In this document: in pieces, positions 32,323 to 54,067 of the stretch
Layout of the letters: each line of letters starts with the position of its first letter
Numbering within the stretch: the first letter of the stretch is position 1
Source: an uncultured Pelagibacteraceae bacterium
GTDB lineage: Bacteria; Pseudomonadota; Alphaproteobacteria; Pelagibacterales; Pelagibacteraceae
Direction: 5' to 3'
NCBI GenBank assembly: GCA_902589795.1
Contig: CACIUJ010000001.1
Span: 17,030 to 81,029, forward strand
DNA: 64,000 nt
Notes under the pieces: generated by a model
The model's database searches: none
Told to the model about the DNA's origin: nothing
What the model saw: the letters and a program-made list of their open reading frames with translations, nothing else
Program-made: the position numbers and the translations under genes

Positions 32323-32326
32323 TCCA

Positions 32327-33373: not shown

Positions 33374-33382
33374 TTTATATTA

Positions 33383-38133: not shown

Positions 38134-38147
38134 AATATAATTTATTT

Positions 38148-38183
38148 AACGAGCCTATTAAAAAATAGGCTCGTTAATTTTTT
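38148..38183 (+). terminator. Rho-independent terminator/attenuator between the binding-protein and permease genes
   Basis: Perfect 12-bp stem AACGAGCCTATT (38148-38159) / AATAGGCTCGTT (38164-38175), a 4-nt loop, then AATTTTTT (T-run 38178-38183). Confidence 0.75.
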
Positions 38184-38191
38184 GAGGTAAA

Positions 38192-39076
38192 ATGGAGTTT
38201 TTAACAAAATTTCCAGCAATGGATCGTACAGCTCTCATGGAAATGAGAAAAGGAATTGATTTTGCCTTTAGAGATTTTTCTAGAACATATGGAGATGGTA
38301 TAGAAGCTTTTTTTGATCCATTATTATTTTTTTTGGTCGGATTGGAAAAATTATTAATTAATTCTCCTTGGCCAATAATAATAGCAATTATTTGTGGTTT
38401 ATCTTGGTTAGGTTCAAAAAATTGGAAACTTGTTCTAGGAGCTGGAATAGCTTTCTTCTGTATTGGTTACTTTGGTATGTGGAAAGATACCATGGCAACA
38501 GTAGCAATCATAACTGTATGTGTAATTATCTGCATGTCAGCAGGAATACCTATAGGGGTAATTATGTCTCGTTCAGACAGGGCAGAAAAAGCAATATTAC
38601 CTATTTTAGATATGATGCAAACCATTCCAAGTTTCGTATATTTAATTCCAATACTGATGTTGCTTGGCATTGGAAAAGTCCCAGGATTAATAGCTGTTTG
38701 TATATATGCAGTTCCGCCAATAATAAGGTTAACAAATCTTGGAATTAGAGAAGTTGATAAAGAAACTTTAGAAGCCAGCACTGCTTATGGAGCAACAACA
38801 TTTCAAAAATTAAAAACAGTACAAATTCCACTTGCACTTCCAACCGTTTTCGCCGGAGTAAACCAAACAATCATGATGGCTTTAGCAATGGTAGTAATAG
38901 CTTCAATGATTGGTGTAAAAGGCTTAGGTGTGCCAATTTTACGTGCTGTTTCAAACCAGTATCTTGCTTTAGGATTGTTTAATGGTTTAGCAATAGTGGC
39001 ATTAGCAATTATTTTTGATAGAATTGCTCAAGAATATGGTCGTAGAATACAAAAACATCGCGGACAAAAAAAATAA
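38192..39076 (+). CDS. ABC permease, ProW/OpuAB type (single domain)
   Basis: 294 aa, about six hydrophobic helices. Conserved permease loop 'ETLEASTAYGATTFQKLKTVQIPLALP'. No ATPase gene is adjacent. Confidence 0.85.
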   Translation: MEFLTKFPAMDRTALMEMRKGIDFAFRDFSRTYGDGIEAFFDPLLFFLVGLEKLLINSPWPIIIAIICGLSWLGSKNWKLVLGAGIAFFCIGYFGMWKDTMATVAIITVCVIICMSAGIPIGVIMSRSDRAEKAILPILDMMQTIPSFVYLIPILMLLGIGKVPGLIAVCIYAVPPIIRLTNLGIREVDKETLEASTAYGATTFQKLKTVQIPLALPTVFAGVNQTIMMALAMVVIASMIGVKGLGVPILRAVSNQYLALGLFNGLAIVALAIIFDRIAQEYGRRIQKHRGQKK

Positions 39077-39096: not shown

Positions 39097-40071
39097 ATGA
39101 ATAATTATCGAATAGATAATCTTCAATATTGTAACTGGTCAAAAGAAATATTTAAGATTAACAATGAAGCAAAACTAGACGCTGTTCACGTAACTATCGC
39201 TTATCACGAAGATTTTAATGAAGTTAAAAAAAATATAGAAATTTGGAACAAACATTTTAAAGAAAATAAAAATTTAATTTTTCATGGAAAAACATTTAAA
39301 GATATAGAAAAAGCTAATAAAGAAAGAAAAACAGCAATATTTTTTGGTTTTCAAAATTGTTCTCCTATTGCTGATGATATTAGATTAGTTGAAAAAGTAT
39401 ACGATTTAGGTGCAAGATTTATGCAACTTACTTATAACAATCAATCTTTATTGGCTACAGGATGTTATGAAAAGAATGACAGTGGAGTTACGAGAATGGG
39501 AAAAGAAGTTATTAAAGAAATGAATAGATTAGGGTTGGTGGTAGACATGTCTCATTCAGCTGAAAAATCTACATTCGATGCTATAGAAATATCTTCAAAA
39601 CCCATAGCTATTACTCATGCAAATCCATCATTTTGGTTTGCTGCTAAGAGAAATAAATCTAGTCAATTGTTAAAAACTTTAGCAGATTCTAAAGGAATGT
39701 TGGGTCTTTCTTTATATCCTCATCACTTAAAAGATAAGTCAAACTGTACACTCGAAAGTTTTTGTGAAATGGCAGCTAAAACAGCTGAACTCATGGGCGT
39801 TAAGCATATTGGAATAGGATCAGATCTTTGTATTGGACATCCAGATTCAGTCGTTGAATGGATGAGAAATGGAAAATGGACTAAAACAAAAGATTTTGGT
39901 GAAGGAAGTAGCACTAATCCAAATTTTCCCAAGCAACCAAAATGGTTTGAGGATGCCCGTGGATTTAAAAATTTAGAAGAAGGTTTAAAAAAAGTTGGAT
40001 TTCAAGAAGCCGAGGTAAATGACATACTAGGAAATAACTGGTATAATTTTTACCGAGGTATAAACAATTGA
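39097..40071 (+). CDS. Peptidase M19 (renal/membrane dipeptidase) fold protein with apparently degenerate metal ligands
   Basis: 324 aa. M19 core motifs are present: 'ARFMQLTYNNQS', 'MNRLGLVVDMSHS', 'IAITHANPS', 'HIGIGSDL'. Three positions that are canonical Zn-ligand motifs read differently: 'IDNLQY' for 'DGHND', 'FGFQNC' for 'LEGG' and 'LTYN' for 'LTHN'. Alignment by eye. Confidence 0.7.
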   Translation: MNNYRIDNLQYCNWSKEIFKINNEAKLDAVHVTIAYHEDFNEVKKNIEIWNKHFKENKNLIFHGKTFKDIEKANKERKTAIFFGFQNCSPIADDIRLVEKVYDLGARFMQLTYNNQSLLATGCYEKNDSGVTRMGKEVIKEMNRLGLVVDMSHSAEKSTFDAIEISSKPIAITHANPSFWFAAKRNKSSQLLKTLADSKGMLGLSLYPHHLKDKSNCTLESFCEMAAKTAELMGVKHIGIGSDLCIGHPDSVVEWMRNGKWTKTKDFGEGSSTNPNFPKQPKWFEDARGFKNLEEGLKKVGFQEAEVNDILGNNWYNFYRGINN

Positions 40072-41738
40072 GCAAACCAAATATAAATTTGAGAGAACCT
40101 TCTGTGGTAATGAAGCTATCTAGACTAGGTTCGTTTCATCAATCAAAATTATCATTTCTTAGAAGTTTTATTAGAGAATTTAAAAGTTGGAATTTTAAAA
40201 GAGATCTGTTTGATCTTGATAAAAATGGCTATGGCACAGCAGTTTATTCTTTTGAAAAAAAAGGAAGAAATTATTCATTAGTATGTTTTGCCCAACATAT
40301 AAAACCAGAAGAAAGATCAGACAGGGTGATAGCTACCAAATGGGACGCGGCTTTTGTTTTACATGATGGGAAGCCCAAAAAAAAAGATATAAATCGTTTA
40401 AAAGAAAATGTACCAAAGCAAGAAGTAGGAAGGGTTTCTTATAAAGAACTTACTTTATCAAGAGCTAATAAATCAATAAGAGCATTTGATCACGTAGTGA
40501 ATTCACTAAGCGTAGGAAAACAACCCGATAAAGAATTATTAAAAAAGGTTGGTTATTTATATAGAACCACAGCAGTTTACGGATCAGGAAAATTTGGTCT
40601 TGCTGATCGTTTTAGGATTAAAGATAGAAAAGAAATTTATGGACCATTTAGATTAGAAATGATGTTAGTCTATCTTGTTAGACAATTTACTTTCGATCAG
40701 GTTAACCATATTGCAAAATGCAAGAATTCAAAAAAAGCTGTGATGTTGGAAGAAAGCATCGCAAGAAATTTAGGAATAGGCAATTCAACAGGACTTGGTA
40801 TGGCTCCTTTTATAGTAAACCATCCAACTCTTTTGCATAATTGGATTTATTGTAGAGAAAAAGCTTTAAAGCAAATAAGATCAATTAAAAATGTTAATGA
40901 AAATGATTTTAATGTTTTCAAGAATTGTCTTAATAAGTCAAAAAACAACATAGATACTTGGTCAACTGATAGCGAATATCAAATAAATAAAATTAATTCT
41001 TTAAAGTTAGATTTAAAAATTTTTTTAAAGTATTTAGAAAACTTAAATTGTAATAAAAATAATTACTTGTGGAATCTTATTTACACTTGGGCTGAAAAAA
41101 ATCTAAAAGAAGAATGTATAGAATATATTGTATCCATGATGATGGAGCCTTATGATTCAATCATTGACCCCTTAATAAATAACATGAGTTCTGAAGAAGA
41201 CAAATATTTTAATATTCCAGCAGATAAAAAAATTTCTGACCTTAAAAAAATTATTGAAAAAAACTATAAATTAATTATTGAAATTGATTTTAAAGATAAA
41301 GATAGTACAAGAAATTTTTGGTTTATATCAAAAAACAAAGAGGAACCCAGGGTAGCCAATAGATATGAAGAACATGGATCTAATCTAGAACAGCCTTTAG
41401 CTATCGCGAGAGATATAAAGAAACTTTATGAAAAGTTAGCCAAGAGCAATCAAAAAGAAACTGTTGCAAATTTTTTATTAAGCAATGATAGTTTAAGACA
41501 TGTAGTTAGAAGAGCTTTTATAGTTGAAAAATTTCCGTACTCTGAAATTCAAGACAATACTATTGGAGCCTCTTTGGTGCCTATAGATATGCTTCGCTTA
41601 AAACTTTCTTTCTTTGGAGCTGTAAAATTTGATCCGAGATCAGATAAATGGCTTAGGATTAATATGTACCAGGGAGCACCTCTGCCTCACGAAATGAAAT
41701 CTTCAAATGACAATTGGGTTTATAACTCACTGAATTAA
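40068..41738 (+). CDS. Hypothetical protein, 556 aa (542 aa if the ATG at 40110 is used), unknown family
   Basis: Long uninterrupted ORF in an AT-rich genome. The TTG start overlaps the M19 stop (TTGA); the first ATG is at 40110. No TM helices, P-loop or metal motif recognised. The N-terminal half looks conserved ('RTTAVYGSGKFGLADRF', 'GIGNSTGLGMAPFIVNHPTLLHNW'). Confidence 0.6.
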   Translation: MSKPNINLREPSVVMKLSRLGSFHQSKLSFLRSFIREFKSWNFKRDLFDLDKNGYGTAVYSFEKKGRNYSLVCFAQHIKPEERSDRVIATKWDAAFVLHDGKPKKKDINRLKENVPKQEVGRVSYKELTLSRANKSIRAFDHVVNSLSVGKQPDKELLKKVGYLYRTTAVYGSGKFGLADRFRIKDRKEIYGPFRLEMMLVYLVRQFTFDQVNHIAKCKNSKKAVMLEESIARNLGIGNSTGLGMAPFIVNHPTLLHNWIYCREKALKQIRSIKNVNENDFNVFKNCLNKSKNNIDTWSTDSEYQINKINSLKLDLKIFLKYLENLNCNKNNYLWNLIYTWAEKNLKEECIEYIVSMMMEPYDSIIDPLINNMSSEEDKYFNIPADKKISDLKKIIEKNYKLIIEIDFKDKDSTRNFWFISKNKEEPRVANRYEEHGSNLEQPLAIARDIKKLYEKLAKSNQKETVANFLLSNDSLRHVVRRAFIVEKFPYSEIQDNTIGASLVPIDMLRLKLSFFGAVKFDPRSDKWLRINMYQGAPLPHEMKSSNDNWVYNSLN

Positions 41739-41740
41739 TT

Positions 41741-42355
41741 ATGCGTTCTTTTAGTGAAATTGATACAACATCAAAACGCGCATCCAAAGCTGCAGGATTT
41801 GCTTGGGGAGTTGCTGAAGAGGTTGGTAAAAACATGAGAAATCTAGAAATGTTTGGTTTACCAGGAATAAAAAATTTAAATTTATATCTTAAAAAAATAA
41901 AAAAAATTCCATCAGAAAAACCCAAAAAGATAGAAAAAAAAAACAAACCACAATCCAAAGAATTTTGCCCTATTTATTGTGGTACAGCATTTTTAGACAA
42001 TTGCAAAAATTTAGAAAATTTAAAGTTAATTAAATTTTTTAACGTCAGTTATCCTTTATTGATTTTACCTTTTTTAAGCAGAGCATCAGATATAGTGGGA
42101 AAAAAAATATCAGTAAAATATGAAAAAAATAGTTTTTTGCTTAATTTTGACAAAAGCATTTTTTCCAATAATATTAATAATAAAAAAACTATTTCTACAA
42201 CAAAAGAAATTTCCATAGAATTTTTAGAAAACAATAATTCATTTTCTACCAAAGAATGGAAAGAACTTTATAGGCTTTCCGAGGAAACTTTTGTTGAAGA
42301 AACAGAAAGTTTAAAAAAGAAAGGCGCAGGCGCAGGTTTAACTGATAATGATTAA
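41741..42355 (+). CDS. Hypothetical protein, 204 aa (conserved N-terminal ~45 aa, K/N-rich remainder)
   Basis: ATG 2 nt after the preceding stop. The N-terminus 'SEIDTTSKRASKAAGFAWGVAEEVGKNMRNLEMFGLPG' resembles, from memory, DUF3726-type proteins; this is unverified. The rest is low complexity. Confidence 0.5.
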   Translation: MRSFSEIDTTSKRASKAAGFAWGVAEEVGKNMRNLEMFGLPGIKNLNLYLKKIKKIPSEKPKKIEKKNKPQSKEFCPIYCGTAFLDNCKNLENLKLIKFFNVSYPLLILPFLSRASDIVGKKISVKYEKNSFLLNFDKSIFSNNINNKKTISTTKEISIEFLENNNSFSTKEWKELYRLSEETFVEETESLKKKGAGAGLTDND

Positions 42356-42398: not shown

Positions 42399-43832
42399 AT
42401 GCTAAATAAAAAGAATTTTTATATCGATGGAAAATGGACGTCTCCAATAGAGCCACGAAATTATAAAGTTATTGATCCATCAAATGAAGAACCTTGTGCT
42501 GAAATATCTCTTGGTGGAAAGAAGGATATAGATAAGGCTGTTAGTGCTGCAAAAAAAGCTTTCGCAACATGGGCTTTTTCAAAAAAAGAAGAGAGATTGG
42601 AATTATTAGAAAAATTATATGTTGTTTATAAAAAACGATGGTCTGAGATGGCAAAACTCATCACTCTTGAGATGGGAGCTCCCATGAAATTTTCAACTGA
42701 AATGCAAGCCGCTACAGGAGCAAGTCACATTAAGTCCTTTAAAAATATTTTAAAAGATTTTAAATTTGAGAAAGACTTAGGAGAAGAAAAGAATAATCAA
42801 AAATTATTGTACGAGCCAAAGGGTGTTTGTGCTTTGATTACACCTTGGAATTGGCCAATTAATCAAGTTAATTTAAAAGTAATTCCAGCTTTAGCATCAG
42901 CATGCACAGTAGTTTTAAAACCATCTGAAATAGCACCCTTGTCGTCAATGTTGCTTGCGGAAATGATTGATGAGGTCAAATTTCCTTCAGGAGTTTTTAA
43001 TTTAGTGAATGGAGACGGAGCTATTACTGGAGATGCTTTAACAAGTCACCCTGACGTTGATATGATTTCTTTTACAGGATCAACAAGAGCCGGTGCATTA
43101 ATTTCTCAAAATGCAGCAAAAGATTTTAAAAGAATAAGCTTAGAGTTAGGTGGAAAAGGAGCGAATATAATTTTTAAGGACGCCGATTCAGAAGCAATAG
43201 CAAGAGGTGTTTTAAGATGTTTTAGAAATTCAGGACAATCGTGCAACGCTCCTACAAGAATGCTTGTTGAAAAATCCATTTATAGTGAAACTGTAGAAAA
43301 AGTAAAAAAATTAGCAAATGACACAAAGGTAGATTCTCCACAAAAAGACGGTGATCATATTGGACCAGTGGTTTCTGAGGTACAATTTAAAAAAATTCAA
43401 ACTTTAATTCAGAAGGGAATTGATGAGGGTGCAAAATTAGTTGCAGGAGGTATTGGTAAACCTAAAGGATTAGAAAAAGGTTATTATGTTAAACCAACTG
43501 TTTTTGCTGATGTTAATAATCAAATGGAAATTGCAAGAACTGAAATTTTTGGCCCTGTGCTATCTATAATTCCGTTTGAAAATGAAGACGAAGCTATTTC
43601 AATAGCAAATGACACTCCATATGGTTTAACAAATTATATTCAAACCCAAGATAAAGAAAAAATTAAAAGAGTTGCAAGAAAACTTAGATCTGGGATGGTG
43701 GATGTTAACGGTGTTGGTATCGCAGTTGCTTCTCCTTTTGGTGGCTATAAACATTCTGGTATTGGACGAGAAGCTGGAACCGAGGGCTTGATAGAATTTT
43801 TAGAAGTTAAAACTGTTGGTGGCTGGAACTAA
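42399..43832 (+). CDS. NAD(P)+-dependent aldehyde dehydrogenase
   Basis: 477 aa. 'ITPWNWP', 'FTGSTRAG', catalytic Glu 'SLELGGKG', catalytic Cys 'NSGQSCNAPTR', 'EIFGPV' and 'FGGYKHSGIGREAG'. Confidence 0.85.
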   Translation: MLNKKNFYIDGKWTSPIEPRNYKVIDPSNEEPCAEISLGGKKDIDKAVSAAKKAFATWAFSKKEERLELLEKLYVVYKKRWSEMAKLITLEMGAPMKFSTEMQAATGASHIKSFKNILKDFKFEKDLGEEKNNQKLLYEPKGVCALITPWNWPINQVNLKVIPALASACTVVLKPSEIAPLSSMLLAEMIDEVKFPSGVFNLVNGDGAITGDALTSHPDVDMISFTGSTRAGALISQNAAKDFKRISLELGGKGANIIFKDADSEAIARGVLRCFRNSGQSCNAPTRMLVEKSIYSETVEKVKKLANDTKVDSPQKDGDHIGPVVSEVQFKKIQTLIQKGIDEGAKLVAGGIGKPKGLEKGYYVKPTVFADVNNQMEIARTEIFGPVLSIIPFENEDEAISIANDTPYGLTNYIQTQDKEKIKRVARKLRSGMVDVNGVGIAVASPFGGYKHSGIGREAGTEGLIEFLEVKTVGGWN

Positions 43833-43841
43833 GCAAATTCA

Positions 43842-44480
43842 TTATTGAATTGTTTTATTTTCTTCATAATCTAAAAGATTAAAATTAATTATCTCATCAA
43901 ATACTTTAATTTTATTATCCATTTTTCTTGTTTCCATTAATTTTTGTTTTTCTTCAATTGAGAATGGAGAAATCATGCTTACATTACTAATTAATTCATC
44001 CAGATTTAATTTTGACAATTCATTATATTTAACAGGATAATTAATTTTTTTAAAAAAGATTTGTATTTTATTTAATAAATTTTTTTTTTCAGAACTAAAA
44101 GTTTCATCTTTTTTAATTTCCAAATCATCTAAAAATTCAGAGTAGTCAACCTCAAAACTTCTGTACAACTTTTCCTTTTTGAGTTCTTTCTTGATCCTAA
44201 ACCTTGTTAATCCCAAAAGCGTAATTATAAATCTTTTATCTGTTGTTTCGTTAAAGCTTATTATTTTCCCCAAACATCCAACACTATAAACTTCTGGAGA
44301 CATACCCTTACTATTTCTTGGTTGCACCATACCAAACATTCTATTTCCCTTTACACAATCATTAACAAGTTGCAAGTAACGATCTTCAAAAATATTTAAT
44401 GGCAAAATCGTTTTTGGAAAAAATATTGCATTAGATAGAGGGAACACTGGAATTTCTTTTAGTAAATTTTCTTTTTTCAT
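43842..44480 (-). CDS. LON N-terminal (substrate-binding) domain protein
   Basis: 212 aa. 'IPVFPLSNAIFFPKTILPLNIFEDRYLQLV' is the typical start of stand-alone Lon N-domain proteins. 4-nt overlap with the upstream gene. Confidence 0.7.
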   Translation of the reverse strand: MKKENLLKEIPVFPLSNAIFFPKTILPLNIFEDRYLQLVNDCVKGNRMFGMVQPRNSKGMSPEVYSVGCLGKIISFNETTDKRFIITLLGLTRFRIKKELKKEKLYRSFEVDYSEFLDDLEIKKDETFSSEKKNLLNKIQIFFKKINYPVKYNELSKLNLDELISNVSMISPFSIEEKQKLMETRKMDNKIKVFDEIINFNLLDYEENKTIQ

Positions 44481-45517
44481 GGCAATAAAACTAACTTACC
44501 TACATGTTTTTTTAACAAAAAATCTTCCTGTGCTTTTCTAATCTCTTTTAATGGATAGGTTTTTGCAATAAGAGGTTTAATTTCTCCTTTTTCTATATAT
44601 TTTATTAGATTTTTAAATACTTCAACAGGCTGATATGTACAACCATAAAAAGTTAAATCTTTTAAATAAAGTGTACGGACATCTAAGTTAACTAAAGGCC
44701 CCCCGATTGCCCCGGCAGTAGCATATCTACCACCTGGTTTTAAAATTTCTAGCAGTTGACCCCAATTTTCACCTGATACAAGATCTACCACAACATCAAA
44801 TTTATTTTTTCCTAATTCTTTAATTAAATCACTTTCGCGAGAAATAGCTTTATTTGCCCCAATTTTTTTTATTTCATTGATTTTTGATGAAGAACATTGT
44901 GCTGTAATGTGAGCCTTTCTTATTTTTGCTAATTGTATAGCTGCAGAGCCAACTCCTCCCGAAGCACCATTTATAAAAATTTTTTCAGCTCCAAGTTTAA
45001 CTCTATAAAGAAGCCCCTCTGCTGTTGAATAAGAACAAGGTATAGAACCAAGTTCTGCATCGGACCATTTGCAATTTATGGAAAATGTTTCTGAAGATCT
45101 TATTGTTACATATTGTGCGAATCCTCCATTAAGCTCTGAGCCAAGAGTTATCATATTAGGACTCGTAGAATTTTTGGGATCAGTTTGCATTGTACGAGCA
45201 ATAACACGTTCCTTAATTCTTGATTTGTTAACTTTTGATCCTACAGAAACGATAATTCCACAAACATCAGCGCCTTGGATACGAGGAAATTTTAAAGGCA
45301 CACCTGACCAACTGCCCCCAACATTTGATTTATATTTTGAATACCAGGCAGTTCTAGTGTTAATATCGGTATTATTAATTCCTGCAGCAGTTACTTTTAT
45401 TAAAACCTCATCATCTTTTGGAACAGGAACGGGAATATCAGTTTTATATTCTAATTTTTCTAAACCACCATGGCCTGTTAATAAAACTGCATGCATTTTT
45501 TTTGGAATATTTTTCAT
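44477..45517 (-). CDS. Medium-chain dehydrogenase/reductase (quinone-oxidoreductase-like)
   Basis: 346 aa. 'EVLIKVTAAGINNTD', 'GADVCGIIVSVG', NAD(P) fold 'INGASGGVGSAAIQLAK'. No obvious structural-Zn Cys cluster. Confidence 0.8.
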   Translation of the reverse strand: MKNIPKKMHAVLLTGHGGLEKLEYKTDIPVPVPKDDEVLIKVTAAGINNTDINTRTAWYSKYKSNVGGSWSGVPLKFPRIQGADVCGIIVSVGSKVNKSRIKERVIARTMQTDPKNSTSPNMITLGSELNGGFAQYVTIRSSETFSINCKWSDAELGSIPCSYSTAEGLLYRVKLGAEKIFINGASGGVGSAAIQLAKIRKAHITAQCSSSKINEIKKIGANKAISRESDLIKELGKNKFDVVVDLVSGENWGQLLEILKPGGRYATAGAIGGPLVNLDVRTLYLKDLTFYGCTYQPVEVFKNLIKYIEKGEIKPLIAKTYPLKEIRKAQEDFLLKKHVGKLVLLP

Positions 45518-46456
45518 TTATTTTCTTATTCTATTCTCGTATTTTTTTCTCATTTTTAAAAGGTTTACCAAATATTCATCACGGATATTTGATAGAGAAG
45601 TTACCGATTTACCTTTTGATTGCTGTCTTGTTCCTTTTATAACTCTAGAAGATAATTTTTTTGTAAGCTTAGGAGCTTTTAATTTTGTCCAAGGCAATTT
45701 TAGAGCTGGACCAAATTGTTTTAACATGTGTTTCATTCCAGCTTTTCCACCCGCCAGATGAAAAGTAAGAAAAGTACCCATTAAAGAGTATCTCAATCCT
45801 GGACCATCCTCTATAGCTCTGTCCAAATCCTCTGTTTTTGCATAACCCTCATTAACTATATGCAACGCCTCTCTCCACAAAGCTTCTTGTAATCTATCTG
45901 ATAAATAGCCAGGTAATTCTTTTTTTACCATAATCGGGTTCATTGATATTGATTTATAAAAATTTTTTGCTTTATTTAGAAAAAATTTATTTGTTTTTTT
46001 TCCAGGCACTATCTCGATCCCTGGACACAAATATACAGGATTGAAAGGATGACCTATCATTGTTCTAGAAGGATTTTTACATTTTGAGTAAATTTTTGTA
46101 GGTAATAATCCTGAAGAGCTAGAGGAAATAATAGCATTTGGTTTTGAAAATTTTCCAATAGCACTTATTAATTTTGTTTTTAGATTATAATTTTCTGTTA
46201 CACATTCTTGAATAAAATCTGCAGTTTTTACAGCTTCTTCAATCGTAGAAACATATTTTAAATTTTTAAAATTAGGTTTATTTTTATTGAATAATTTTTT
46301 TACAAAAGGCCAAGCACGTTTTATTTCAACAATTAATTTTTTTTTTGATTTGATGTCTTTATCAAATGCTACAACTTTTTTATTATGTGCTAAACATCTA
46401 ATAACCCAACCCGTTCCAATAACTCCGGTACCTATAACAGATATTTTTTTAATCAT
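45518..46456 (-). CDS. 3-hydroxyacyl-CoA dehydrogenase family protein, L-carnitine dehydrogenase / lambda-crystallin-like
   Basis: 312 aa. 'ISVIGTGVIGTGWVIRCL', the Rossmann motif typical of the carnitine/gulonate 3-dehydrogenase subgroup. 'GHPFNPVYL', 'PGYLSDRLQEALWREALH'. Confidence 0.75.
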   Translation of the reverse strand: MIKKISVIGTGVIGTGWVIRCLAHNKKVVAFDKDIKSKKKLIVEIKRAWPFVKKLFNKNKPNFKNLKYVSTIEEAVKTADFIQECVTENYNLKTKLISAIGKFSKPNAIISSSSSGLLPTKIYSKCKNPSRTMIGHPFNPVYLCPGIEIVPGKKTNKFFLNKAKNFYKSISMNPIMVKKELPGYLSDRLQEALWREALHIVNEGYAKTEDLDRAIEDGPGLRYSLMGTFLTFHLAGGKAGMKHMLKQFGPALKLPWTKLKAPKLTKKLSSRVIKGTRQQSKGKSVTSLSNIRDEYLVNLLKMRKKYENRIRK

Positions 46457-47308
46457 TTAATCTGCCAAACCATCAGACCTAGGTTTGTTTCTTTCGATGT
46501 GAATTGGCAACACTTTTCCATATATTGCTTTAGAATGTTCTGGAGTATTCACTCTCCAAGGATCAAGAACGTAAGCTGGTATACAAAGATATCTAGGACG
46601 ACTTCCTTCTATTTTTGTGACACGGTGAAGAGTAAAACGTCCTTTAAATATTTGAAGATCACCTGGTTCTAATTTTAATTGACGAACTCTACTGCGGTCT
46701 CCATCAAGCACTTTTTTAACTTCATCTAATTTTTCATTTCCGGGTTCACGTATATTTGGACAATACTCAAATATTCCGCCTTTCTCAGGTTTTTGTATCA
46801 TAAAACTTAATGTAAATTCGCAGCTATCGAAATGCCAAGGAAGAACACCATCTGGTTTCATCACGTTATAAGCATGGCAAGCCAAAGGATCAGCCCATCG
46901 GTAAATTGGTGATATTCCAAGACAAGCTGAGACAAAATTTAAAAGTTCATCTTGTTCATAAAGAAATTTCATCTCCGAATCTTTTGGAAAAACATCGGAG
47001 TTTAAGTAACCATTATAACGATCCATAAATATTCTTTTTGGATGATTTTTTGGTAATGAAGGGTCGTCTTTTGAATATAAATATGCGTTTATACTTTCCT
47101 TAGACATATAAACTTCATCAAGTTGTTTTTCTAGTTCTGTATTCATTATTTTTAAAGATTTGGGTAAAATAAAATTAGGAATAGTAGCACAACTAAATTG
47201 GTCTAAATCACTTTTACATTTCTTTATTAATTCTTTTATTAATGGAGAATTTAAATCCTGTATTGGATATTTTTTAAGATCAACGATGGTCTCTAATCTA
47301 TTATTCAT
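46457..47308 (-). CDS. Putative Fe(II)/2-oxoglutarate-dependent oxygenase (hydroxylase-type HxD facial triad)
   Basis: 283 aa. 'VLPWHFDSCEF' (H-x-D), distal 'RFTLHRVTKI' (His) and a following Arg in 'GSRPRY'. The jelly-roll-like spacing fits. The subfamily is not assignable. Confidence 0.6.
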   Translation of the reverse strand: MNNRLETIVDLKKYPIQDLNSPLIKELIKKCKSDLDQFSCATIPNFILPKSLKIMNTELEKQLDEVYMSKESINAYLYSKDDPSLPKNHPKRIFMDRYNGYLNSDVFPKDSEMKFLYEQDELLNFVSACLGISPIYRWADPLACHAYNVMKPDGVLPWHFDSCEFTLSFMIQKPEKGGIFEYCPNIREPGNEKLDEVKKVLDGDRSRVRQLKLEPGDLQIFKGRFTLHRVTKIEGSRPRYLCIPAYVLDPWRVNTPEHSKAIYGKVLPIHIERNKPRSDGLAD

Positions 47309-47313
47309 TTTAA

Positions 47314-48549
47314 TTATAAATCCTCTAAAGGATGATGGGACATTAACTCAAGTCCATTTTCGCCAACTAAATATTGTTGTTCTAATTTTACTCCTTCTTT
47401 ACCTCCCACTTTTCCAATATAAGTCTCAACTGTAATAGTCATATTTTTTTCAAAATAACCTTCCCTTTGACCCCCGTCAGTTGGATATCTTATCATTGGC
47501 CACTCATCACAAAGACCTATTCCATGAACCATGCATGAATACCTATTTCCATAATATTCCTCTGGAAGTTTCCAAGACTTTTCAGTGAATTCTTTAAAAG
47601 ACACTCCATGTTTAATTAATCTAGAGTTGTGATTGATATGCTCGATTGCCATTAAGTATAATTTTTTTTGTCCATCATTAAACTTATGGCCTTCAACAAA
47701 AGCCCTAGATATATCAGCGCAATATCCATAAGGACCTACCATATCGGTATCAAAAGATACCAATTCTCCACTTTGAATAATTTTATTGGTACTTTCTTGC
47801 ATCCATGGATTTGTTCTTTCTCCAGAAGATAAAATTCTACATTCAATCCATTCACCGCCATATTCAATATTAGTTTTGTGTAAGATTGACCAAAGTTCAT
47901 CTTCTGTCATTCCTGCTTTTAATTCTTCTCTCATTTTATTAACTCCTATTTCTGCAACATCGATAGCAGCTTTCATACATTTTAATTCTTCAGGAGACTT
48001 AATAACTCTTGCCTGCTCAACGATTGATTTCGCGTCTACTACTTCTATGCCCGACTTATTCAAAGCAGTTACTGCTGGACCGTTAATTACATCAATGGCT
48101 ATTTTTTTACTTTTAAAATATGCTTTTGATAAATCTTTTACTTCATTAATCCATTTTTCTAATTGAACTCCAGCTTGGTCGCCGTTACTAAAGTAATCCC
48201 AAGTTATAGCTGGCCTTATCTCATTTATTAAATTCAAATGGCTAGATAATTTTTCACAGTTAAAATATTCATAAAGAACTATAGGACCGTTAATTGGTAT
48301 AAAACAGTAACGAGTTAAATTATGCATGTTATAGATACTCATATTAGTTGTATCTAATGCATATCTAATATTAACAGGGTCAAATAATATACAGGCTTCA
48401 AGATTATTTTTTTCTAATTCTTTTTTAATTCTATCTAGCCTGTAAGATCTAAGCTTATCAAAATTTATTTCATCTTCTCTTAATCTTTTTTTCGTTACAA
48501 AATTTTGTTTTGGTTTTGTGTCTGGGGTAATTTTTCTATTAAATCTCAT
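47314..48549 (-). CDS. M24-family metallohydrolase with creatinase-type N-domain (prolidase / ectoine-hydrolase / DddP-like)
   Basis: 411 aa. Pita-bread-fold ligand pattern appears complete: 'SFDTDMVGPYGYCADISR' (D, D), 'MVHGIGL' (H), 'ITVETY' (E), 'VKLEQQ' (E). Confidence 0.8.
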   Translation of the reverse strand: MRFNRKITPDTKPKQNFVTKKRLREDEINFDKLRSYRLDRIKKELEKNNLEACILFDPVNIRYALDTTNMSIYNMHNLTRYCFIPINGPIVLYEYFNCEKLSSHLNLINEIRPAITWDYFSNGDQAGVQLEKWINEVKDLSKAYFKSKKIAIDVINGPAVTALNKSGIEVVDAKSIVEQARVIKSPEELKCMKAAIDVAEIGVNKMREELKAGMTEDELWSILHKTNIEYGGEWIECRILSSGERTNPWMQESTNKIIQSGELVSFDTDMVGPYGYCADISRAFVEGHKFNDGQKKLYLMAIEHINHNSRLIKHGVSFKEFTEKSWKLPEEYYGNRYSCMVHGIGLCDEWPMIRYPTDGGQREGYFEKNMTITVETYIGKVGGKEGVKLEQQYLVGENGLELMSHHPLEDL

Positions 48550-48550
48550 A

Positions 48551-49747
48551 TTAGACCAAATTTGTAGCTACCCATTTATGAAAATGATGAGTCGGATTAT
48601 CCATAACTGGTGAAAAGTTTCCACCATTATAAGAAGGAGAATTTCTTCCTTTCTGCATACCTTCTATAATGTGAACATCTTCTGATTGAACGTCATGCCA
48701 AAGTTTTAAATTTTGTCTTCTTAAGTTTTTAAATTTTTTTGAATTTGCAGCTTCGTAACCCACGTAATAAATTTCCATGTGCTCTATAGTAAGTTCATGA
48801 TTTATTGGTTCTAACCAATATGCATAATAGTGGTCTTTGTGAATACCCATCATTACATTGGGGAAAAGAGCAACATATTCAGCTATATTTATTTTATTTT
48901 TTGGCCAATTAGGAAAGCACGGAAATTTATTTTTACCTTTTAATCTAGGATTATAAACAACAGTTCCTTGTCCAGCAAATCTATTTGGCAAGCCTTGTAT
49001 ATGATAATGATCACTAATTTTAGAATAACTATTTAAACCTGGGTGCACCCAAGGCAAATGATAACTTTCACAATAATTTTCAATCGCAAATTTCCAATTG
49101 CACTTTGCTTTTAATTTAAAATAACCTAAGTCTTTTGAGTGTTTAATTAGTTTTTGATCTTTTTCTGGCCAAAATTTAGACCAACGATCTTTTAATGGCT
49201 TAATGTATTTCTCAAATGACACCTCATTATTAGAAATATTTACAACAATCATATCCAGCCAAACATAGGAACGAACTTCTTTAAGACCGCTTGAAGATTT
49301 ATCAAAATCTTTTGATTCGTGTTTATTCATGCCTCCTAAATGAGGAGTAGAAACTAGTTCACCATTTAAACTATAAGACCAGGAATGGTAGGGACATCTT
49401 ATTATATTTTTTATAGAGCATTTTTTTTGTAAAATTTTATATCCTCTATGACTGCAAACATTATGATAAACTTTGACTTGATTTTTTTTATTTCTTAATA
49501 AAATTAAAGGAATTCCTAATAAATCAAAAGGCCTTGCATCTCCAGGTTTGGGTATTGAACTAGCAACGCCTATCACAACCCACTTGTCTTCAAAAAGTTT
49601 TTTTCTTTCTATTTTAGTATACTCAATACTATTATAACATTCATTAGGAAGACCATGTGCTTCAGTTATTGGTTTATTTACCACATCTAGCTTTTCTTTT
49701 TTTACGATGTCGTAGATACTCATGCTTCCATTAAGTTTCGGGACCAT
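48551..49747 (-). CDS. Rieske [2Fe-2S] non-heme-iron oxygenase, alpha/oxygenase component (GbcA/CntA/Stc2-like)
   Basis: 398 aa. Rieske motif 'CSHRGYKILQKKCSIKNIIRCPYHSW' (CxH...CxxH). Mononuclear-iron motif 'ENYCESYHLPWVHP' (H-x4-H). No reductase or ferredoxin gene nearby. Confidence 0.85.
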   Translation of the reverse strand: MVPKLNGSMSIYDIVKKEKLDVVNKPITEAHGLPNECYNSIEYTKIERKKLFEDKWVVIGVASSIPKPGDARPFDLLGIPLILLRNKKNQVKVYHNVCSHRGYKILQKKCSIKNIIRCPYHSWSYSLNGELVSTPHLGGMNKHESKDFDKSSSGLKEVRSYVWLDMIVVNISNNEVSFEKYIKPLKDRWSKFWPEKDQKLIKHSKDLGYFKLKAKCNWKFAIENYCESYHLPWVHPGLNSYSKISDHYHIQGLPNRFAGQGTVVYNPRLKGKNKFPCFPNWPKNKINIAEYVALFPNVMMGIHKDHYYAYWLEPINHELTIEHMEIYYVGYEAANSKKFKNLRRQNLKLWHDVQSEDVHIIEGMQKGRNSPSYNGGNFSPVMDNPTHHFHKWVATNLV

Positions 49748-49840
49748 TTAAAAATCCTAGCATTTCAGTAAAAATTGGCAATAGATATCAATTGAAATTA
49801 CTAGACAGGACTAGGGGTCCGCTGGTATATCCCGTTGATT

Positions 49841-50569
49841 ATGAATTTCTCAATAGAAATTACTATGAAGACTGACCTTTCGGAATTACCTAAAGTTAAG
49901 GATGTCTATATTACTATGCTGCCCGGTAATGATTACAGGCAGGTGGCAAATAAGGCTAGTGAGCTAGTTAAATCTGGGTTTAACCCAGTCCCCCATTTTC
50001 CTGCTCGTTCTATTAAGAATAAGGCTGAATTAAAAGACTACGTAAGCAGATGCAAGGACGGAGGAGTGAAACAGGCTCTAATAATAGGGGGTAGTGCGCA
50101 ACCCATTGGAGATTTTCACTGTTCGTTGCAGTTATTAGAGACAAAATTATTTGAGGGGTGGAAGATAGGAATCGCTGGACATCCAGATGGGTCCCCTGAT
50201 ATATCCGATCAAGATTTAGAAAAAGCTATGATCGATAAGAAACCTTACGCAGACTATATAGTTACACAATGGTTATTAGATTATAATCCGATAGCTAAAT
50301 TTATTTCTAAACAAACTTTACCAGTTCATGTAGGAATTACTGGGCCTCTAAAAATAAGCAGTTTATTAAAGTTTGCAAATATTGTTGGGGCAAAAAATTC
50401 AATTAATTTTCTTAAATCTAATGTTACTAAAGCGGTAGATTTATTAAAACCTAAGGATCCAAATGAAATGATTGAAAAACTCAAAGGATCAACCGAGAAT
50501 TTTCACATTTATACTTTTGGTGGTCTTAAGGAAACTAATAAATGGTTAACGGAGAATAATTATGCCTAA
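49841..50569 (+). CDS. Short methylenetetrahydrofolate-reductase-like (MetF-fold) protein
   Basis: The ORF track starts at TTG 49835; the ATG at 49841 ('MNFSIEIT') is preferred. MTHFR-like landmarks by eye: 'FSIE', 'VYITMLPG', 'VPHFPARS', 'IGIAGHPDGSP', 'ADYIVTQWLLD', 'VHVGITGP'. About 240 aa is shorter than typical MetF, and the 'RGD' acid appears to be replaced ('IGGS'). Confidence 0.6.
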   Translation: MNFSIEITMKTDLSELPKVKDVYITMLPGNDYRQVANKASELVKSGFNPVPHFPARSIKNKAELKDYVSRCKDGGVKQALIIGGSAQPIGDFHCSLQLLETKLFEGWKIGIAGHPDGSPDISDQDLEKAMIDKKPYADYIVTQWLLDYNPIAKFISKQTLPVHVGITGPLKISSLLKFANIVGAKNSINFLKSNVTKAVDLLKPKDPNEMIEKLKGSTENFHIYTFGGLKETNKWLTENNYA

Positions 50570-51986
50570 AAAGAAAAAAGCTAAAAAAAGTAAAGTTAAA
50601 AAAATTAAATCAGTTTCATTTAAACCTGAAAAGGTTAATTACGATAAAGTTAAACACACAACATCTGTTGATCAATCAGATAGACATGTACCTTACAATT
50701 TAAGACAGAGTGGACCAACAAAAGTAGAATTATTAATTTCAACAAGAGTAAGAAAGTCACCCTATTGGCATTTATCAATGAAAGCTGGATGCTGGAGAGC
50801 TACAGTTTATAATCGCGTTTATCATCCCAGAGGTTATGTAAGACCTGAAAAAGGTGGGGCTATGGTTGAGTATGCAGCAATTAAAAATCATGTAACGATG
50901 TGGAATGTAGCTGTAGAGAGACAAATTCGTGTGAAAGGAGCAGATGCTGAAAGATTTACAGATTATGTAATAACGCGTGATGCAACAAAAATTTCAACAA
51001 TGAGAGGTCGTTACGTTATTCTTTGTAATAATAAGGGAGGAGTATTAAACGATCCAGTTTTATTAAGAGTAGCTGATGATGAATTTTGGTTCAGTTTGTC
51101 TGATTCTGATATTGGAATGTACTTACAAGGTGTGAATGCTGATAAAAAATTCAATGTAGAAATAGATGAAATAGATGCATGCCCAGTACAAATACAGGGC
51201 CCTAAATCAAAAGCATTATTAAATGATTTAATTGGAGATCAAGTTGATCTAGATAACATGCCTTTTTATGGTTTGGCAGAAGCTAAAGTGGGAGGCAGAA
51301 GCTGTGTGATTTCTCAATCAGGATTTTCTGGTGAAGCTGGGTATGAAATTTATCTTCGTGATGCAACTTTATATGCAGAAGATATGTGGAATGCTGTTCT
51401 AAAAGCTGGAAAGAAACATAAACTAATGGTTATTGCTCCTGCACACCATAGAAGAATTCAAGCAGGAATTTTGTCTTGGGGCCAAGATATGGATAATGAA
51501 CATAACCCTTTCCAATGTAACTTGGGTTACCAAGTTTCTTTGTCCGGCAAAGGTGAGTGGAATAAAAAAACAGATTATGTAGGAAAAGAAGCTTTAGAAA
51601 AAATGAAAGAGGAAATTAAGCAAGGAAAAAAACCTTATAAACTTCAACTCGTAGGTATGGAACTAGGAGGAAAGCCAATAGAAGAATATGCTCCAGATTT
51701 TTGGCTAATTTCGAATGCAAAAGGAGGAAAGCCAATAGGTTATATTACTTCTCCTTGGTACCACCCAGAAAAGAAAAAAAACATTGCAATGGGATATGTT
51801 CCATATGAAGGACATCTAAGCGCTAAAGGGTTTCCAATTGGAAATTTTGGTAAAAAATACAAGGTTCATTTGCCAAAGAAATATTCCAGTAAACCAGTTG
51901 ATGCGGTAGTTGTTCCTATACCTTTCACGCAGTCATTCAATGCAAATACTCGTGAAGCTGAAGTATTGGCTACTTTAAATAAATAA
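50562..51986 (+). CDS. GcvT-family THF-dependent methyltransferase/demethylase (DmdA/LigM-like) with Lys-rich N-terminal extension
   Basis: 474 aa with an 8-nt overlap with the MTHFR-like gene. Aminomethyltransferase fold: 'MWNVAVERQIRVKGADAERF', 'NNKGGVLNDPVLLRVADDEFWFSLSDSD', 'VQIQGPKS', 'SGFSGEAGYEIYL'. N-terminus 'MPKKKKAKKSKVKKIKS'. Confidence 0.75.
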   Translation: MPKKKKAKKSKVKKIKSVSFKPEKVNYDKVKHTTSVDQSDRHVPYNLRQSGPTKVELLISTRVRKSPYWHLSMKAGCWRATVYNRVYHPRGYVRPEKGGAMVEYAAIKNHVTMWNVAVERQIRVKGADAERFTDYVITRDATKISTMRGRYVILCNNKGGVLNDPVLLRVADDEFWFSLSDSDIGMYLQGVNADKKFNVEIDEIDACPVQIQGPKSKALLNDLIGDQVDLDNMPFYGLAEAKVGGRSCVISQSGFSGEAGYEIYLRDATLYAEDMWNAVLKAGKKHKLMVIAPAHHRRIQAGILSWGQDMDNEHNPFQCNLGYQVSLSGKGEWNKKTDYVGKEALEKMKEEIKQGKKPYKLQLVGMELGGKPIEEYAPDFWLISNAKGGKPIGYITSPWYHPEKKKNIAMGYVPYEGHLSAKGFPIGNFGKKYKVHLPKKYSSKPVDAVVVPIPFTQSFNANTREAEVLATLNK

Positions 51987-54011: not shown

Positions 54012-54067
54012 AAAAATCTAACTTGACGTATCATAAGCTTATATTTAGAAATTTACCTTATTTATTT

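Follow-up and report, generated by a model that had tools for sequence, protein, structure and literature searches.

We analyzed a 64,000-nucleotide stretch of DNA from an uncultured Pelagibacteraceae bacterium (GenBank assembly GCA_902589795.1, contig CACIUJ010000001.1, positions 17,030 to 81,029; here called the window), with a focus on a run of five minus-strand genes that extends from position 49747 down to 44477. The first gene encodes a Rieske non-haem-iron oxygenase alpha subunit (48551-49747; 398 amino acids [aa]; Pfam Rieske and Ring_hydroxyl_A) and the second a DddP-family M24 binuclear-metal enzyme (47314-48549; 411 aa; Peptidase_M24 and Creatinase_N). They are followed by genes for an Fe(II)/2-oxoglutarate (2OG) oxygenase of the HalD/BesD family, hydroxylase type (46457-47308; 283 aa; HalD), an L-carnitine-dehydrogenase-like (CDH-like) 3-hydroxy-acid dehydrogenase (45518-46456; 312 aa; 3HCDH_N/3HCDH), and a zinc-less MDR of the quinone-oxidoreductase/enoyl-reductase type (44477-45517; 346 aa; ADH_N/ADH_zinc_N). 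The gaps along the run are 1, 5, 0, and 0 nt, and the MDR gene overlaps by 4 nt a minus-strand gene for a 212-aa LON substrate-binding-domain protein (43842-44480; LON_substr_bdg). These reading frames, spacings, and the overlap had been listed in a preliminary description of the DNA, and its coordinates were recovered exactly; all five of its family assignments and the motifs that it quoted also withstood Pfam and motif checks. The window has a G+C content of about 32%, and its proteins are 75 to 94% identical to proteins of single-cell and metagenome-assembled Pelagibacteraceae genomes (the homologues carry the name Candidatus Pelagibacter); the genome is therefore of the SAR11 type. We see an approximately even chance that this run is a strain-specific arrangement of a mosaic SAR11 island for the O2-dependent breakdown of an imported small onium zwitterion.

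The tight packing of the genes, pointed out in the preliminary description, could suggest an operon. Among 35 same-strand junctions in the window, the median gap was 4 nt, 60% of the gaps were 5 nt or shorter, and coding density was 96%. As such packing is the genome-wide norm, we rejected spacing as a basis for an operon, and gene adjacency in SAR11 is generally weak evidence because the whole genome is tightly packed. The only promoter-like site directly upstream of the Rieske gene (TTGCCA-16-TAGGAT with TG; 49781-49754, minus strand) lies in an 87-nt divergent intergenic region (49748-49834), and promoter-like matches were not enriched over shuffled sequence. No terminator-like sites were found within positions 43500 to 50700, and tRNA and Rfam scans of the window gave no matches. 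The LON-domain gene, which among the SAR11 loci occurs only in the window and in one close relative (L006), is probably outside the pathway.

The Rieske protein has intact CxH/CxxH and H-x4-H motifs, as first described (C98-x-H100...C118-x2-H121, with an ordinary 17-residue spacing). Its closest solved structure is the carnitine/gamma-butyrobetaine oxygenase CntA (114 bits over residues 30 to 376), and E227, H230-x4-H235, and D357 align with CntA Glu205 and His208/His213/Asp323. Aromatic dioxygenases and Stc2-type demethylases match the N-terminal Rieske domain only (76 bits for the Stc2 type), and the GbcA model NF058607 gives 120 bits over residues 27 to 240 only, far from its equivalog cutoff of 670. 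The proposed betaine-type likeness was accordingly narrowed: it holds for the CntA-like "group V" type but not for GbcA or Stc2. We predict from these alignments that the protein belongs to an uncharacterised subfamily of that group. GbcA, Stc2-type, aromatic-ring dioxygenase, and MsmA identities were all rejected on N-terminal-only matches or far sub-cutoff scores together with the ordinary motif spacing, and an exact-protein lookup found no record of the window protein.

With CntA/CntB of Acinetobacter baumannii, the window Rieske protein shares the Rieske motif, the bridging Glu, the 2-His-1-Asp iron site, and an alpha-only architecture. Unlike CntA/CntB, it shows low similarity, has no CntB-type reductase, and carries Ser and Leu in place of the Cys206-x-x-Cys209 pair, which lies beside the iron site and occurs in some group V members (PMC10952381). 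In A. baumannii, a 48%-identical orthologue of the window protein exists separately from CntA, in a different operon. The lack of a Rieske reductase/ferredoxin and of a BKACE-type enzyme near the cluster, noted in the preliminary description, was confirmed: FNR-type reductases, ferredoxins, and BKACE were missing from the 55 of 56 non-nested window open reading frames (ORFs) of at least 120 aa that were scanned, a search of the window and of 84 SAR11 loci gave no gene for a GbcB-type flavin/FeS reductase, and the window has none for CntB. The Pfam scan covered the window ORFs other than seven (69-1511, 5796-6191, 7572-8414, 9370-10839, 12269-14614, 16113-16700, and 17799-19952).

The M24 protein had been described as keeping all its metal ligands in the manner of ectoine hydrolase, prolidase, and DddP. 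The ligands are indeed all kept, but the relationship is specifically to the DddP family rather than to generic ectoine-hydrolase- or prolidase-like enzymes. All six DddP metal ligands (Asp295, Asp297, Asp307, His371, Glu406, and Glu421) are invariant in the M24 alignment, as are the equivalents of the proposed catalytic residues Tyr366 and Asp377 (alignment with Ruegeria lacuscaerulensis DddP and Oceanisphaera DddP). The NCBIfam DddP model NF043017 matched the protein with 360.9 bits (1e-108) against an equivalog cutoff of 600; on the same model, Oceanisphaera DddP scored 626.5 bits and two Pseudomonas M24 copies scored 440.5 and 347.3 bits. The first 50 or so positions of the model are unmatched, and the residue aligned with DddP Trp95 is Tyr. 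Identity is 37% to the R. lacuscaerulensis enzyme and 45% to Oceanisphaera DddP (45 to 49% with the Pseudomonas M24 proteins included). We rejected identities as ectoine hydrolase, prolidase, or creatinase, the DoeA models giving 28 to 40 bits and the DddP family being preferred. By its conserved residues the protein is best described as a predicted DddP-family binuclear-metal enzyme. It resembles DddP of the Ruegeria, Roseobacter, and Oceanimonas type in its M24 pita-bread fold, catalytic residues, 37 to 45% identity, and the presence of a DmpX-like importer nearby, and differs in its sub-cutoff score, the Trp95-to-Tyr change, and a systematic pairing with a 2OG oxygenase, which lysis of dimethylsulfoniopropionate (DMSP) does not need.

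The 2OG enzyme matches the Pfam HalD model PF23169 above threshold (45.1 bits; gathering cutoff, 26) in its C-terminal half only, and weakly matches the structure of BesD. Its metal-binding triad, H159-x-D161...H228, is invariant in the family alignment, and the replacement of the carboxylate ligand by Gly or Ala that marks halogenases is not found. With Asp161 in the triad, the enzyme is therefore a hydroxylase and not a halogenase. It further differs from the BesD/HalD amino-acid halogenases and hydroxylases in its partners, which are catabolic (M24, class-II aldolase, hydroxy-acid dehydrogenases, and betaine-type transporters) and not biosynthetic for natural products. Two HalD paralogues in tandem, with about 52 to 55% identity between them, are found on many SAR11 contigs.

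The CDH-like dehydrogenase carries the motif VIGTGVIGTGW and matches lambda-crystallin structures. L-carnitine dehydrogenase is its nearest family, as had been suggested, but the score on NCBIfam PRK07066 stays below the cutoff (355.8 versus 414 bits; a typical SAR11 copy scores 350.5). It is 46.7% identical to a Caballeronia CDH located between BKACE and thioesterase genes, neither of which is present here. The MDR carries the NAD(P)-binding motif GASGGVG at residue 184 and matches PDB entry 4j6f with 276 bits; it scores 141 bits on the PIG3 family (cutoff, 297). An AcuI identity was rejected because scores on the AcuI/YhdH models are far below the cutoffs (39.6 bits versus 440 for NF051456; 67.8 versus 297 for TIGR02823). 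The MDR is a strain-variable cassette of the zinc-less quinone-oxidoreductase/enoyl-reductase type.

We then compared gene order within SAR11. A scan of species-representative genomes gave 348 relatives of the Rieske protein, and synteny was read from the best 80 loci, all from Pelagibacteraceae; adjacency was counted in 69 loci with enough downstream sequence, and gene presence in 43 loci with at least 9 kb downstream. The M24 gene adjoined the Rieske gene in 64 of the 69 loci. A HalD gene lay downstream in 34 and a CDH-like gene in 26 of the 43, and all three (M24, HalD, and CDH-like) occurred together in 24, with a gap between HalD and the CDH-like gene of mostly 0 to 4 nt. An MDR homologue was present in a single locus (1/43; 26% identity); a second homologue (64% identity) comes immediately after the Rieske gene on the short contig L061. 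The complete set of five genes was found in none of the 43 loci. The preliminary description had treated the genes as one cluster and named their synteny in related genomes as the check; with 0/43 loci and an MDR nearly unique to the window, a conserved five-gene unit is not upheld.

The usual SAR11 order starts with GcvT, a methylenetetrahydrofolate reductase (MTHFR)-like gene, a permease gene, and a DmpX-like substrate-binding protein gene, and continues, in divergent orientation, with BHMT, a DMGDH-like gene, a SAM methyltransferase gene, and the Rieske gene. After the Rieske gene come an optional SET-domain gene, M24, a P-loop gene, a gene for a 124-aa protein, HalD, the CDH-like gene, and then genes for an enoyl-CoA hydratase (ECH), a CoA-binding protein, MsrA, a flavodoxin-like protein, and DMGDH. 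The closest relatives of the window (L005 and L006) have the order Rieske-M24-HalD-class-II aldolase-CDH-like-FrhB-like-LON; the window is without the class-II aldolase and FrhB-like genes, and its MDR occupies the FrhB-like slot. M24 and HalD are separated by about 10 nt, 780 nt, 3.1 kb, or 5.3 kb, the 780-nt class containing genes for a P-loop protein and a small CTP-transferase-like protein and the 5-kb class autotransporter genes. Two autotransporter beta-domain genes lie between M24 and HalD at positions 12837 to 17307 of L079 (and in L080), which shows that the locus accepts unrelated cargo. The M24 proteins are of two types, 72 to 75% (L005, L007, L008, L011, and L012) or 88 to 94% (L006, L009, and L010) identical to that of the window, in loci with Rieske proteins 88 to 94% identical to the window's; their sequences suggest allelic replacement by recombination within the cluster. 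In strain HTCC1062, the genes downstream of BHMT are phosphate-regulation genes and the five-gene cluster is apparently missing; there, BHMT borders hypervariable region 3, with many non-syntenic metagenome neighbours (PMC2217521). The five-gene block is a strain-specific arrangement at a cassette-exchange locus.

This pattern raises the alternative that the genes have no common pathway and are unrelated cassettes, each with its own substrate, joined by streamlining and frequent exchange at a SAR11 hypervariable locus. The alternative is favored by the uninformative gene spacing, by the lack of any locus with all five genes, and by insertions of 0.8 to 5.4 kb between M24 and HalD, autotransporters included. 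The alternation of MDR and FrhB-like genes in one slot, the two M24 alleles (72 to 75% and 84 to 94% identity) among genomes with Rieske proteins at least 88% identical, and the bordering of hypervariable region 3 by BHMT in HTCC1062 point in the same direction. Chance juxtaposition does not, however, predict that the same family pairs should recur on alpha-, beta-, and gammaproteobacterial plasmids and on unrelated marine contigs, with LysR regulators and betaine-type transporters beside them. We consider it unlikely that the genes share no pathway, and the recurrence is as follows.

Rieske homologues 44 to 48% identical to the window protein occur in A. baumannii, Oceanisphaera sp., Pseudomonas sp. 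MPC6, Cupriavidus pauculus, and Leisingera spp., and the next gene is always one for a betaine aldehyde dehydrogenase (BADH)-like aldehyde dehydrogenase (ALDH). In Acinetobacter, Oceanisphaera, Pseudomonas, and Cupriavidus, the operon continues with a rubredoxin::rubredoxin-reductase fusion, a DAO-type oxidoreductase, and an EutQ cupin, and its neighbors are BCCT or MFS transporters and LysR regulators. The fusion gene (Rubredoxin, Pyr_redox_2, and Rbx_binding domains) stands two genes after the Rieske gene (positions 11628 to 12983 of L087 from A. baumannii; also L085, L088, and L094). By its domains, the fusion would be the obvious electron donor in these operons, of a type unusual for a Rieske oxygenase. 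No homologues of the reductase fusion, DAO, or EutQ partners were found in the window or the 84 SAR11 loci. In Leisingera the order is LysR-Rieske-ALDH-small ORF-MDR-MR_MLE (the last an enolase-superfamily gene), with an MDR 59% identical to that of the window. DddP-family genes lie 3 to 6 kb from the Rieske operon on Oceanisphaera and Pseudomonas plasmids: the Oceanisphaera plasmid has a cutoff-passing DddP about 3.4 kb away across the origin, and on the Pseudomonas plasmid the DddP-family gene (440 bits) ends the Rieske gene run, with a trio of genes (M19, a 573-aa protein, and DUF3726) that the window also has located just upstream.

HalD homologues 39 to 52% identical to the window enzyme adjoin M24 genes in Pseudomonas and Caballeronia. 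The best match outside SAR11 (52% identity) is on the same Pseudomonas plasmid, where a LysR gene faces the order HalD-M24-FrhB-like (M24 49% identical; 347 bits on the DddP model) with an OpuAC ABC system nearby; in Caballeronia sp. SBC2 the order is HalD-M24-OpuAC binding protein-permease. The binding proteins near both HalD-M24 pairs keep the Trp cage and the Tyr of DmpX. In Alisedimentitalea, a HalD homologue adjoins an MttB-family quaternary-amine methyltransferase gene and a DMGDH-like gene. A plasmid of this genus also carries a DddP-family M24 protein 41 to 44% identical and with all catalytic residues intact (L092, 4968-10185), next to genes for a 5-guanidino-2-oxopentanoate decarboxylase, a fatty-acid-desaturase-like oxygenase, and a Rieske-type ferredoxin, and near an agmatinase gene; given this cluster, the DddP family may include guanidino-compound enzymes.

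A metagenome scan, seeded with the HalD alignment and confirmed against the Pseudomonas sequence, yielded 80 loci, 12 of them with 36 to 50% G+C. On these 12 mid-GC contigs, a class-II aldolase-family gene 65 to 72% identical to that of SAR11 was present in all 12, HIBADH-type dehydrogenase and MR_MLE genes in 10 each, M24 and D-2-hydroxy-acid dehydrogenase (2HADH) genes in 7 each, and FrhB-like genes in 4. Two of the contigs have the order AldII-HalD-HIBADH-2HADH-M24-GcvT-GcvH-GcvP, and the HalD operon of another holds genes for L-serine dehydratase, a sulfotransferase, and APS kinase. The class-II aldolase/adducin-family gene beside HalD is unusually conserved between SAR11-like contigs of about 30% G+C and contigs of 38 to 48% G+C (65 to 72% identity; L097 4817-5569, L150 7276-7998, and L005/L006 at about 9006-9729). 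The SAR11-like contig L097 joins the modules in the order Rieske-ALDH-M24-HalD-AldII-FrhB, with DUF3726, 556-aa, and M19 genes nearby. In L131 and L133, HalD is followed by an MR_MLE gene 61% identical to that of the window, and in L131 this is followed by a HIBADH-type gene and an MDR gene 68% identical to the window's, with an integrase alongside. The integrase gene is phage type (5049-5999) and the contig a low-GC marine one, which suggests that the HalD-MR_MLE-HIBADH-MDR module is able to move as an island.

It appears reasonably secure that more than SAR11 ancestry connects the Rieske, M24, and 2OG genes: alpha-, beta-, and gammaproteobacteria show the same pairings, controlled by LysR genes and with betaine-type transporters next to them. 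The block divides into four evolutionary modules that turn up separately in other bacteria: the CntA-like Rieske oxygenase; the DddP-family M24 enzyme together with the HalD-type hydroxylase; the hydroxy-acid dehydrogenase that comes directly after this hydroxylase; and the quinone-oxidoreductase-type MDR, whose partner elsewhere is an enolase-superfamily enzyme. The hydroxylase is consistently followed by a hydroxy-acid dehydrogenase, and the alternation between CDH-like (SAR11) and HIBADH-type (elsewhere) enzymes reads, with reasonable security, as a non-orthologous replacement. The earlier idea of hydroxylation followed by oxidation of the new hydroxyl gains indirect support from this order and from the class-II aldolase beside it. 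Hydroxylase, dehydrogenase, and aldolase together fit a route in which hydroxylation is followed by oxidation of the alcohol and cleavage of the keto acid; the window is without the third enzyme.

The neighborhood is larger than the five genes first delimited, as a DmpX-like importer, an MR_MLE enzyme, a trio of M19, 556-aa, and DUF3726 genes, an ALDH, and a GcvT-like protein belong to families that co-occur with the cluster elsewhere. Divergent from the Rieske gene, on the plus strand, are genes for an MTHFR-like protein (244 aa) and a GcvT-family DmdA-like aminomethyltransferase (474 aa) (49835-51986; Pfam/NCBIfam). The pair is kept in 54 to 60 SAR11 loci and is directly divergent from Rieske in the closest relatives of the window; the GcvT-family protein scores 241 bits on the DmdA model (cutoff, 410). 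Convergent with the cluster is a plus-strand gene for a BADH-like ALDH (42399-43832; Pfam Aldedh; 429 bits on TIGR01804, cutoff 669), which is not an orthologue of the ALDH that follows Rieske in other taxa, since the two are only 32 to 34% identical. The trio of an M19 dipeptidase-like amidohydrolase, a 556-aa protein, and a DUF3726 protein (39097-42355, plus strand; Pfam) adjoins the Rieske operon on the plasmid of Pseudomonas sp. MPC6 (M19 53% and 556-aa protein 37% identical) and HalD modules in L097, L143, and L161; the 556-aa protein has no Pfam or NCBIfam family match. The trio, with a middle protein of about 556 to 580 aa, is shared by SAR11, the Pseudomonas plasmid, and mid-GC marine contigs, and it always lies near Rieske or HalD modules (L088 1-5586, L097 9869-12728, and L143 279-3728). 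The minus-strand MR_MLE gene (35802-36980; Pfam) encodes a protein closest to acid-sugar dehydratases (256 bits on the galactonate-dehydratase model; cutoff, 311).

About 6 kb from the cluster, on the plus strand, lie genes for a DmpX-like (DMSP-type) OpuAC substrate-binding protein (37111-38133) and an ABC permease (together 37111-39076). The sole PDB match of the binding protein is 7YLE (166 bits), the RnDmpX-DMSP complex (PMC10030565). Seven of eight RnDmpX pocket residues are identical (Trp35, Thr64, Trp84, Glu113, Trp152, Tyr200, and Trp202), and the remaining DMSP-contact residue, Ala153, is Gly; judged by these pocket residues, the protein is a predicted DmpX-like one. Tyr200 is considered diagnostic by the DmpX authors, who report a Kd for DMSP of 100 nM for DmpX of SAR11 strain HTCC7211 and state that dmpXWV does not co-localise with DMSP catabolic genes (PMC10030565). 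In most SAR11 loci the binding protein-permease pair is about 5 kb from the DddP-family gene. The pair has no adjacent ATPase gene, and the only ABC ATPase of the window (16764-17795) belongs to a second OpuAC system.

The window as a whole has the gene content of a Pelagibacter (SAR11) methylated-amine/C1 island of roughly 60 kb. Elsewhere it encodes a Tmm-type flavin-containing monooxygenase (FMO), the second OpuAC ABC system, N-methylglutamate/gamma-glutamylmethylamide (NMG/GMA)-type proteins, formate-tetrahydrofolate ligase (FTHFS), sarcosine-oxidase subunits (SoxBAG), BHMT, two DMGDH-type proteins, ETF, and ETF-QO. Positions 2475 to 21309 form a methylamine-pathway-type block with a glutamine-synthetase-like gene, an ammonium transporter gene, GATase and Glu_synthase-domain (N-methylglutamate-synthase-like) genes, DAO, the second OpuAC binding protein, a MORN-repeat protein, the ABC ATPase, the Tmm-like FMO, and ORFs of 781 and 717 aa; the block would consume any trimethylamine (TMA) that the cluster releases. 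Positions 31623 to 35800 hold genes for a SAM methyltransferase (minus strand), BHMT, and an 805-aa DMGDH-like protein about 35% identical to the DMGDH at 54023-56500. These genes directly precede Rieske in one run in most SAR11; in the window they are separated from it by about 13 kb plus an inversion.

The DmpX-like binding proteins and BCCT transporters, the group-V-type Rieske protein, the DddP-family enzyme, and the methyl and TMA oxidation genes point with reasonable security to an onium zwitterion as the class of substrate. In the island reading, which we hold to be about as likely as not, this zwitterion is a sulfonium or quaternary-ammonium carboxylate similar to DMSP, betaine, or carnitine. 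Candidates are DMSP or dimethylsulfoxonium propionate (DMSOP), S-methylmethionine, beta-alanine betaine, gamma-butyrobetaine or carnitine, choline-type alcohols, and amino-acid betaines.

The importer and the M24 enzyme together invite a reading centered on DMSP. Here the M24 enzyme would be a DddP-type DMSP/DMSOP lyase fed by the DmpX importer and yielding dimethyl sulfide (DMS), or DMSO, and acrylate; the MDR, the CDH-like enzyme, and, in other SAR11, ECH and the CoA-binding protein would dispose of acrylate or 3-hydroxypropionate, while the two oxygenases modified DMSP or its products. Every DddP catalytic residue is kept, the protein shares 45% identity with a cutoff-passing Oceanisphaera protein (626 bits), and functional DddPs are reported down to 32% mutual identity (PMC4108388). 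The nearby binding protein has Tyr200 and a SAR11 counterpart with 100 nM affinity for DMSP (PMC10030565), a DmdA-like GcvT gene diverges from the cluster, and a cutoff-passing ECH gene follows the CDH-like gene in typical SAR11 loci. Acrylate-handling MDRs (AcuI) are also classically tied to ddd genes (PMC3338564), but the MDR is not AcuI (40 versus 440 bits). Moreover, the M24 score (361 versus 600 bits) is at the level of a Pseudomonas copy (347) that NCBI annotates merely as Xaa-Pro peptidase family, Trp95 is replaced, and the catalytic residues are equally intact in the M24 protein of the guanidino-compound cluster. A lyase needs no 2OG oxygenase, yet the HalD-M24 adjacency is the most widely conserved one, even in soil Caballeronia. 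This obligate-looking pairing of the M24 subtype and its sub-threshold score weaken the DMSP-lyase reading, which we regard as rather unlikely.

Under the island reading that we prefer, the DmpX-like ABC system would import the substrate, the 2OG enzyme would hydroxylate an unactivated carbon, and the CDH-like enzyme would turn the new hydroxyl into a keto group. In relatives, a class-II aldolase/decarboxylase-family enzyme, whose gene is missing from the window, could then cleave the keto acid. The DddP-family enzyme would bind the carboxylate at its di-iron centre and catalyze beta-elimination or hydrolysis, giving DMS or TMA as the onium leaving group, or else an amidine/amide fragment. The Rieske oxygenase may hydroxylate the carbon beside the onium centre, as CntA and choline monooxygenase do, to yield an aldehyde, which in other taxa would be taken by the adjacent ALDH. 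The MDR would reduce an enoate or enone product, and released methyl groups, TMA, and glycine could pass to the flanking Tmm, Tdm-like, DMGDH, Sox, GcvT, and FTHFS genes.

Several observations weigh against this reading. Neither the window nor any of the 84 SAR11 loci supplies an electron donor for the Rieske protein, and Rieske, CDH-like, and MDR genes were present on none of the 12 mid-GC HalD contigs. Because an M24 protein sits in a guanidino cluster and a HalD module includes sulfotransferase and APS-kinase genes, the families are not tied to a single chemistry. Since the class-II aldolase and FrhB-like genes of its relatives are lacking, this copy may be incomplete. The locus is also a cassette-exchange hot spot, where other genomes have acquired autotransporters, the P-loop/CTP-transferase pair, and a SET-domain gene, and the five genes need not act on one compound, because they never recur together.

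The preliminary description had arranged the enzymes in a linear scheme, in which a gamma-butyrobetaine-like compound is hydroxylated by the 2OG enzyme as an analogue of gamma-butyrobetaine hydroxylase (BBOX), the 3-hydroxyl is oxidized, and the Rieske enzyme carries out demethylation or C-N cleavage. The conserved HalD-CDH-like order at 0 to 4 nt in SAR11, the proximity of the dehydrogenase to L-carnitine dehydrogenase (356 versus 414 bits; 47% identity to true CDHs), and CntA as the best solved relative of the Rieske protein are in line with this scheme. So are the TMA-oxidation genes in the window and the Alisedimentitalea HalD homologue beside MttB-family and DMGDH-like genes, and the class-II aldolase/decarboxylase-family gene between HalD and the CDH-like gene in the nearest relatives could fill the cleavage role. 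The dehydrogenase, however, is below the cutoff and has neither the BKACE nor the thioesterase partner of real CDH loci, and the substrates of HalD-family enzymes of solved structure are free amino acids instead of betaines. M24, more tightly linked to the two oxygenases than any other gene, is left without a function in the scheme; outside SAR11, Rieske and HalD modules occur independently of each other; and SAR11 genomes with a carnitine island use BBOX, CDH, and BKACE (PMC12421898). We judge the scheme to be distinctly unlikely, and its final C-N cleavage by the Rieske enzyme is pure speculation.

A more specific possibility is an undescribed O2-dependent route for sulfonium or quaternary-ammonium osmolytes in SAR11 and in several other Proteobacteria of sea and soil, in which the HalD-type oxygenase and the DddP-like enzyme act on a DmpX-type ligand and a separate CntA-like Rieske subfamily releases DMS or TMA and an aldehyde. 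One option within this route is that DMSP is oxidised to DMSOP, followed by lysis; the enzymes making DMSOP are unknown (PMC10686828). The other is that hydroxylation triggers the breaking of a C-S or C-N bond in S-methylmethionine, beta-alanine betaine, or gamma-butyrobetaine. Such a route is a long shot in our view.

The statement that the cluster matches no described carnitine, betaine, or ectoine pathway stood up to comparison of family scores and gene content. By these measures the cluster is distinct from the GbcAB, CntAB, Stc, BBOX-CDH-BKACE, and ectoine (Doe/Eut) systems. The L-carnitine dehydrogenase operon of Pseudomonas and Burkholderia contains the nearest family of the window dehydrogenase (47% identity), and the succession of an oxygenase and a 3-hydroxy-acid dehydrogenase recalls the logic of BBOX followed by CDH. 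Unlike that operon and the BBOX-CDH-BKACE-CHDH island of Arctic SAR11, the window is without BKACE, thioesterase, TauD-type BBOX, and choline dehydrogenase, and identity with the Arctic carnitine island was rejected on its different gene set (PMC12421898).

Hydroxyproline-betaine and proline-betaine neighborhoods, reportedly described by Zhao et al. in 2013, are said to combine the enolase-superfamily epimerase HpbD with a Rieske demethylase and an OpuAC binding protein. The present genes are similar in uniting an enolase-superfamily enzyme, a Rieske protein, an OpuAC-type binding protein, and LysR/GntR regulators, and the Pseudomonas and Leisingera plasmid islands carry D-hydroxyproline-dehydrogenase-like and DHDPS-like genes. 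They differ in the N-terminal-only Stc2-type match (76 bits), in an MR_MLE protein nearest to acid-sugar dehydratases, and in having no N-methylproline demethylase. No published description of this gene set was found in the literature searched on SAR11 Rieske/DddP/CntA/carnitine dehydrogenase and on homarine, and the words Rieske, dipeptidase, and DUF3726 do not appear in the text of the homarine-operon paper (PMC13236597). The gene set is a putative osmolyte-catabolic island built from known families, with a Rieske subfamily and a DddP-like/2OG-oxygenase pairing that are both uncharacterised.

Although the five genes themselves are genuine, they do not form a fixed five-step operon; we regard them as a reshuffled form of a widespread, uncharacterised toolkit, putatively for the breakdown of small charged osmolytes (DMSP- or betaine-like compounds). 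The gene set is common in SAR11, the most abundant surface-ocean heterotroph (348 species-representative relatives and thousands of metagenome clusters for the Rieske protein), and sits among genes that process DMSP, glycine betaine, TMA, and trimethylamine N-oxide (TMAO), compounds that control marine sulfur, nitrogen, and climate-active gas fluxes. One hidden Markov model (HMM) survey of dddP uses a threshold of 1e-30 (PMC8520302). HMM surveys with such loose thresholds would count the SAR11 M24 gene (1e-108) as dddP, whereas the 2OG oxygenase that accompanies it suggests a different or further role; if the undescribed O2-dependent route is true, part of the surveyed "SAR11 dddP" would be a different enzyme activity. 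The modules also occur in culturable and genetically tractable hosts (Pseudomonas sp. MPC6, Leisingera, A. baumannii, and Caballeronia), and the rubredoxin::reductase fusion of the orthologous operons could stand in as electron donor in assays of the "orphan" SAR11 Rieske enzyme.

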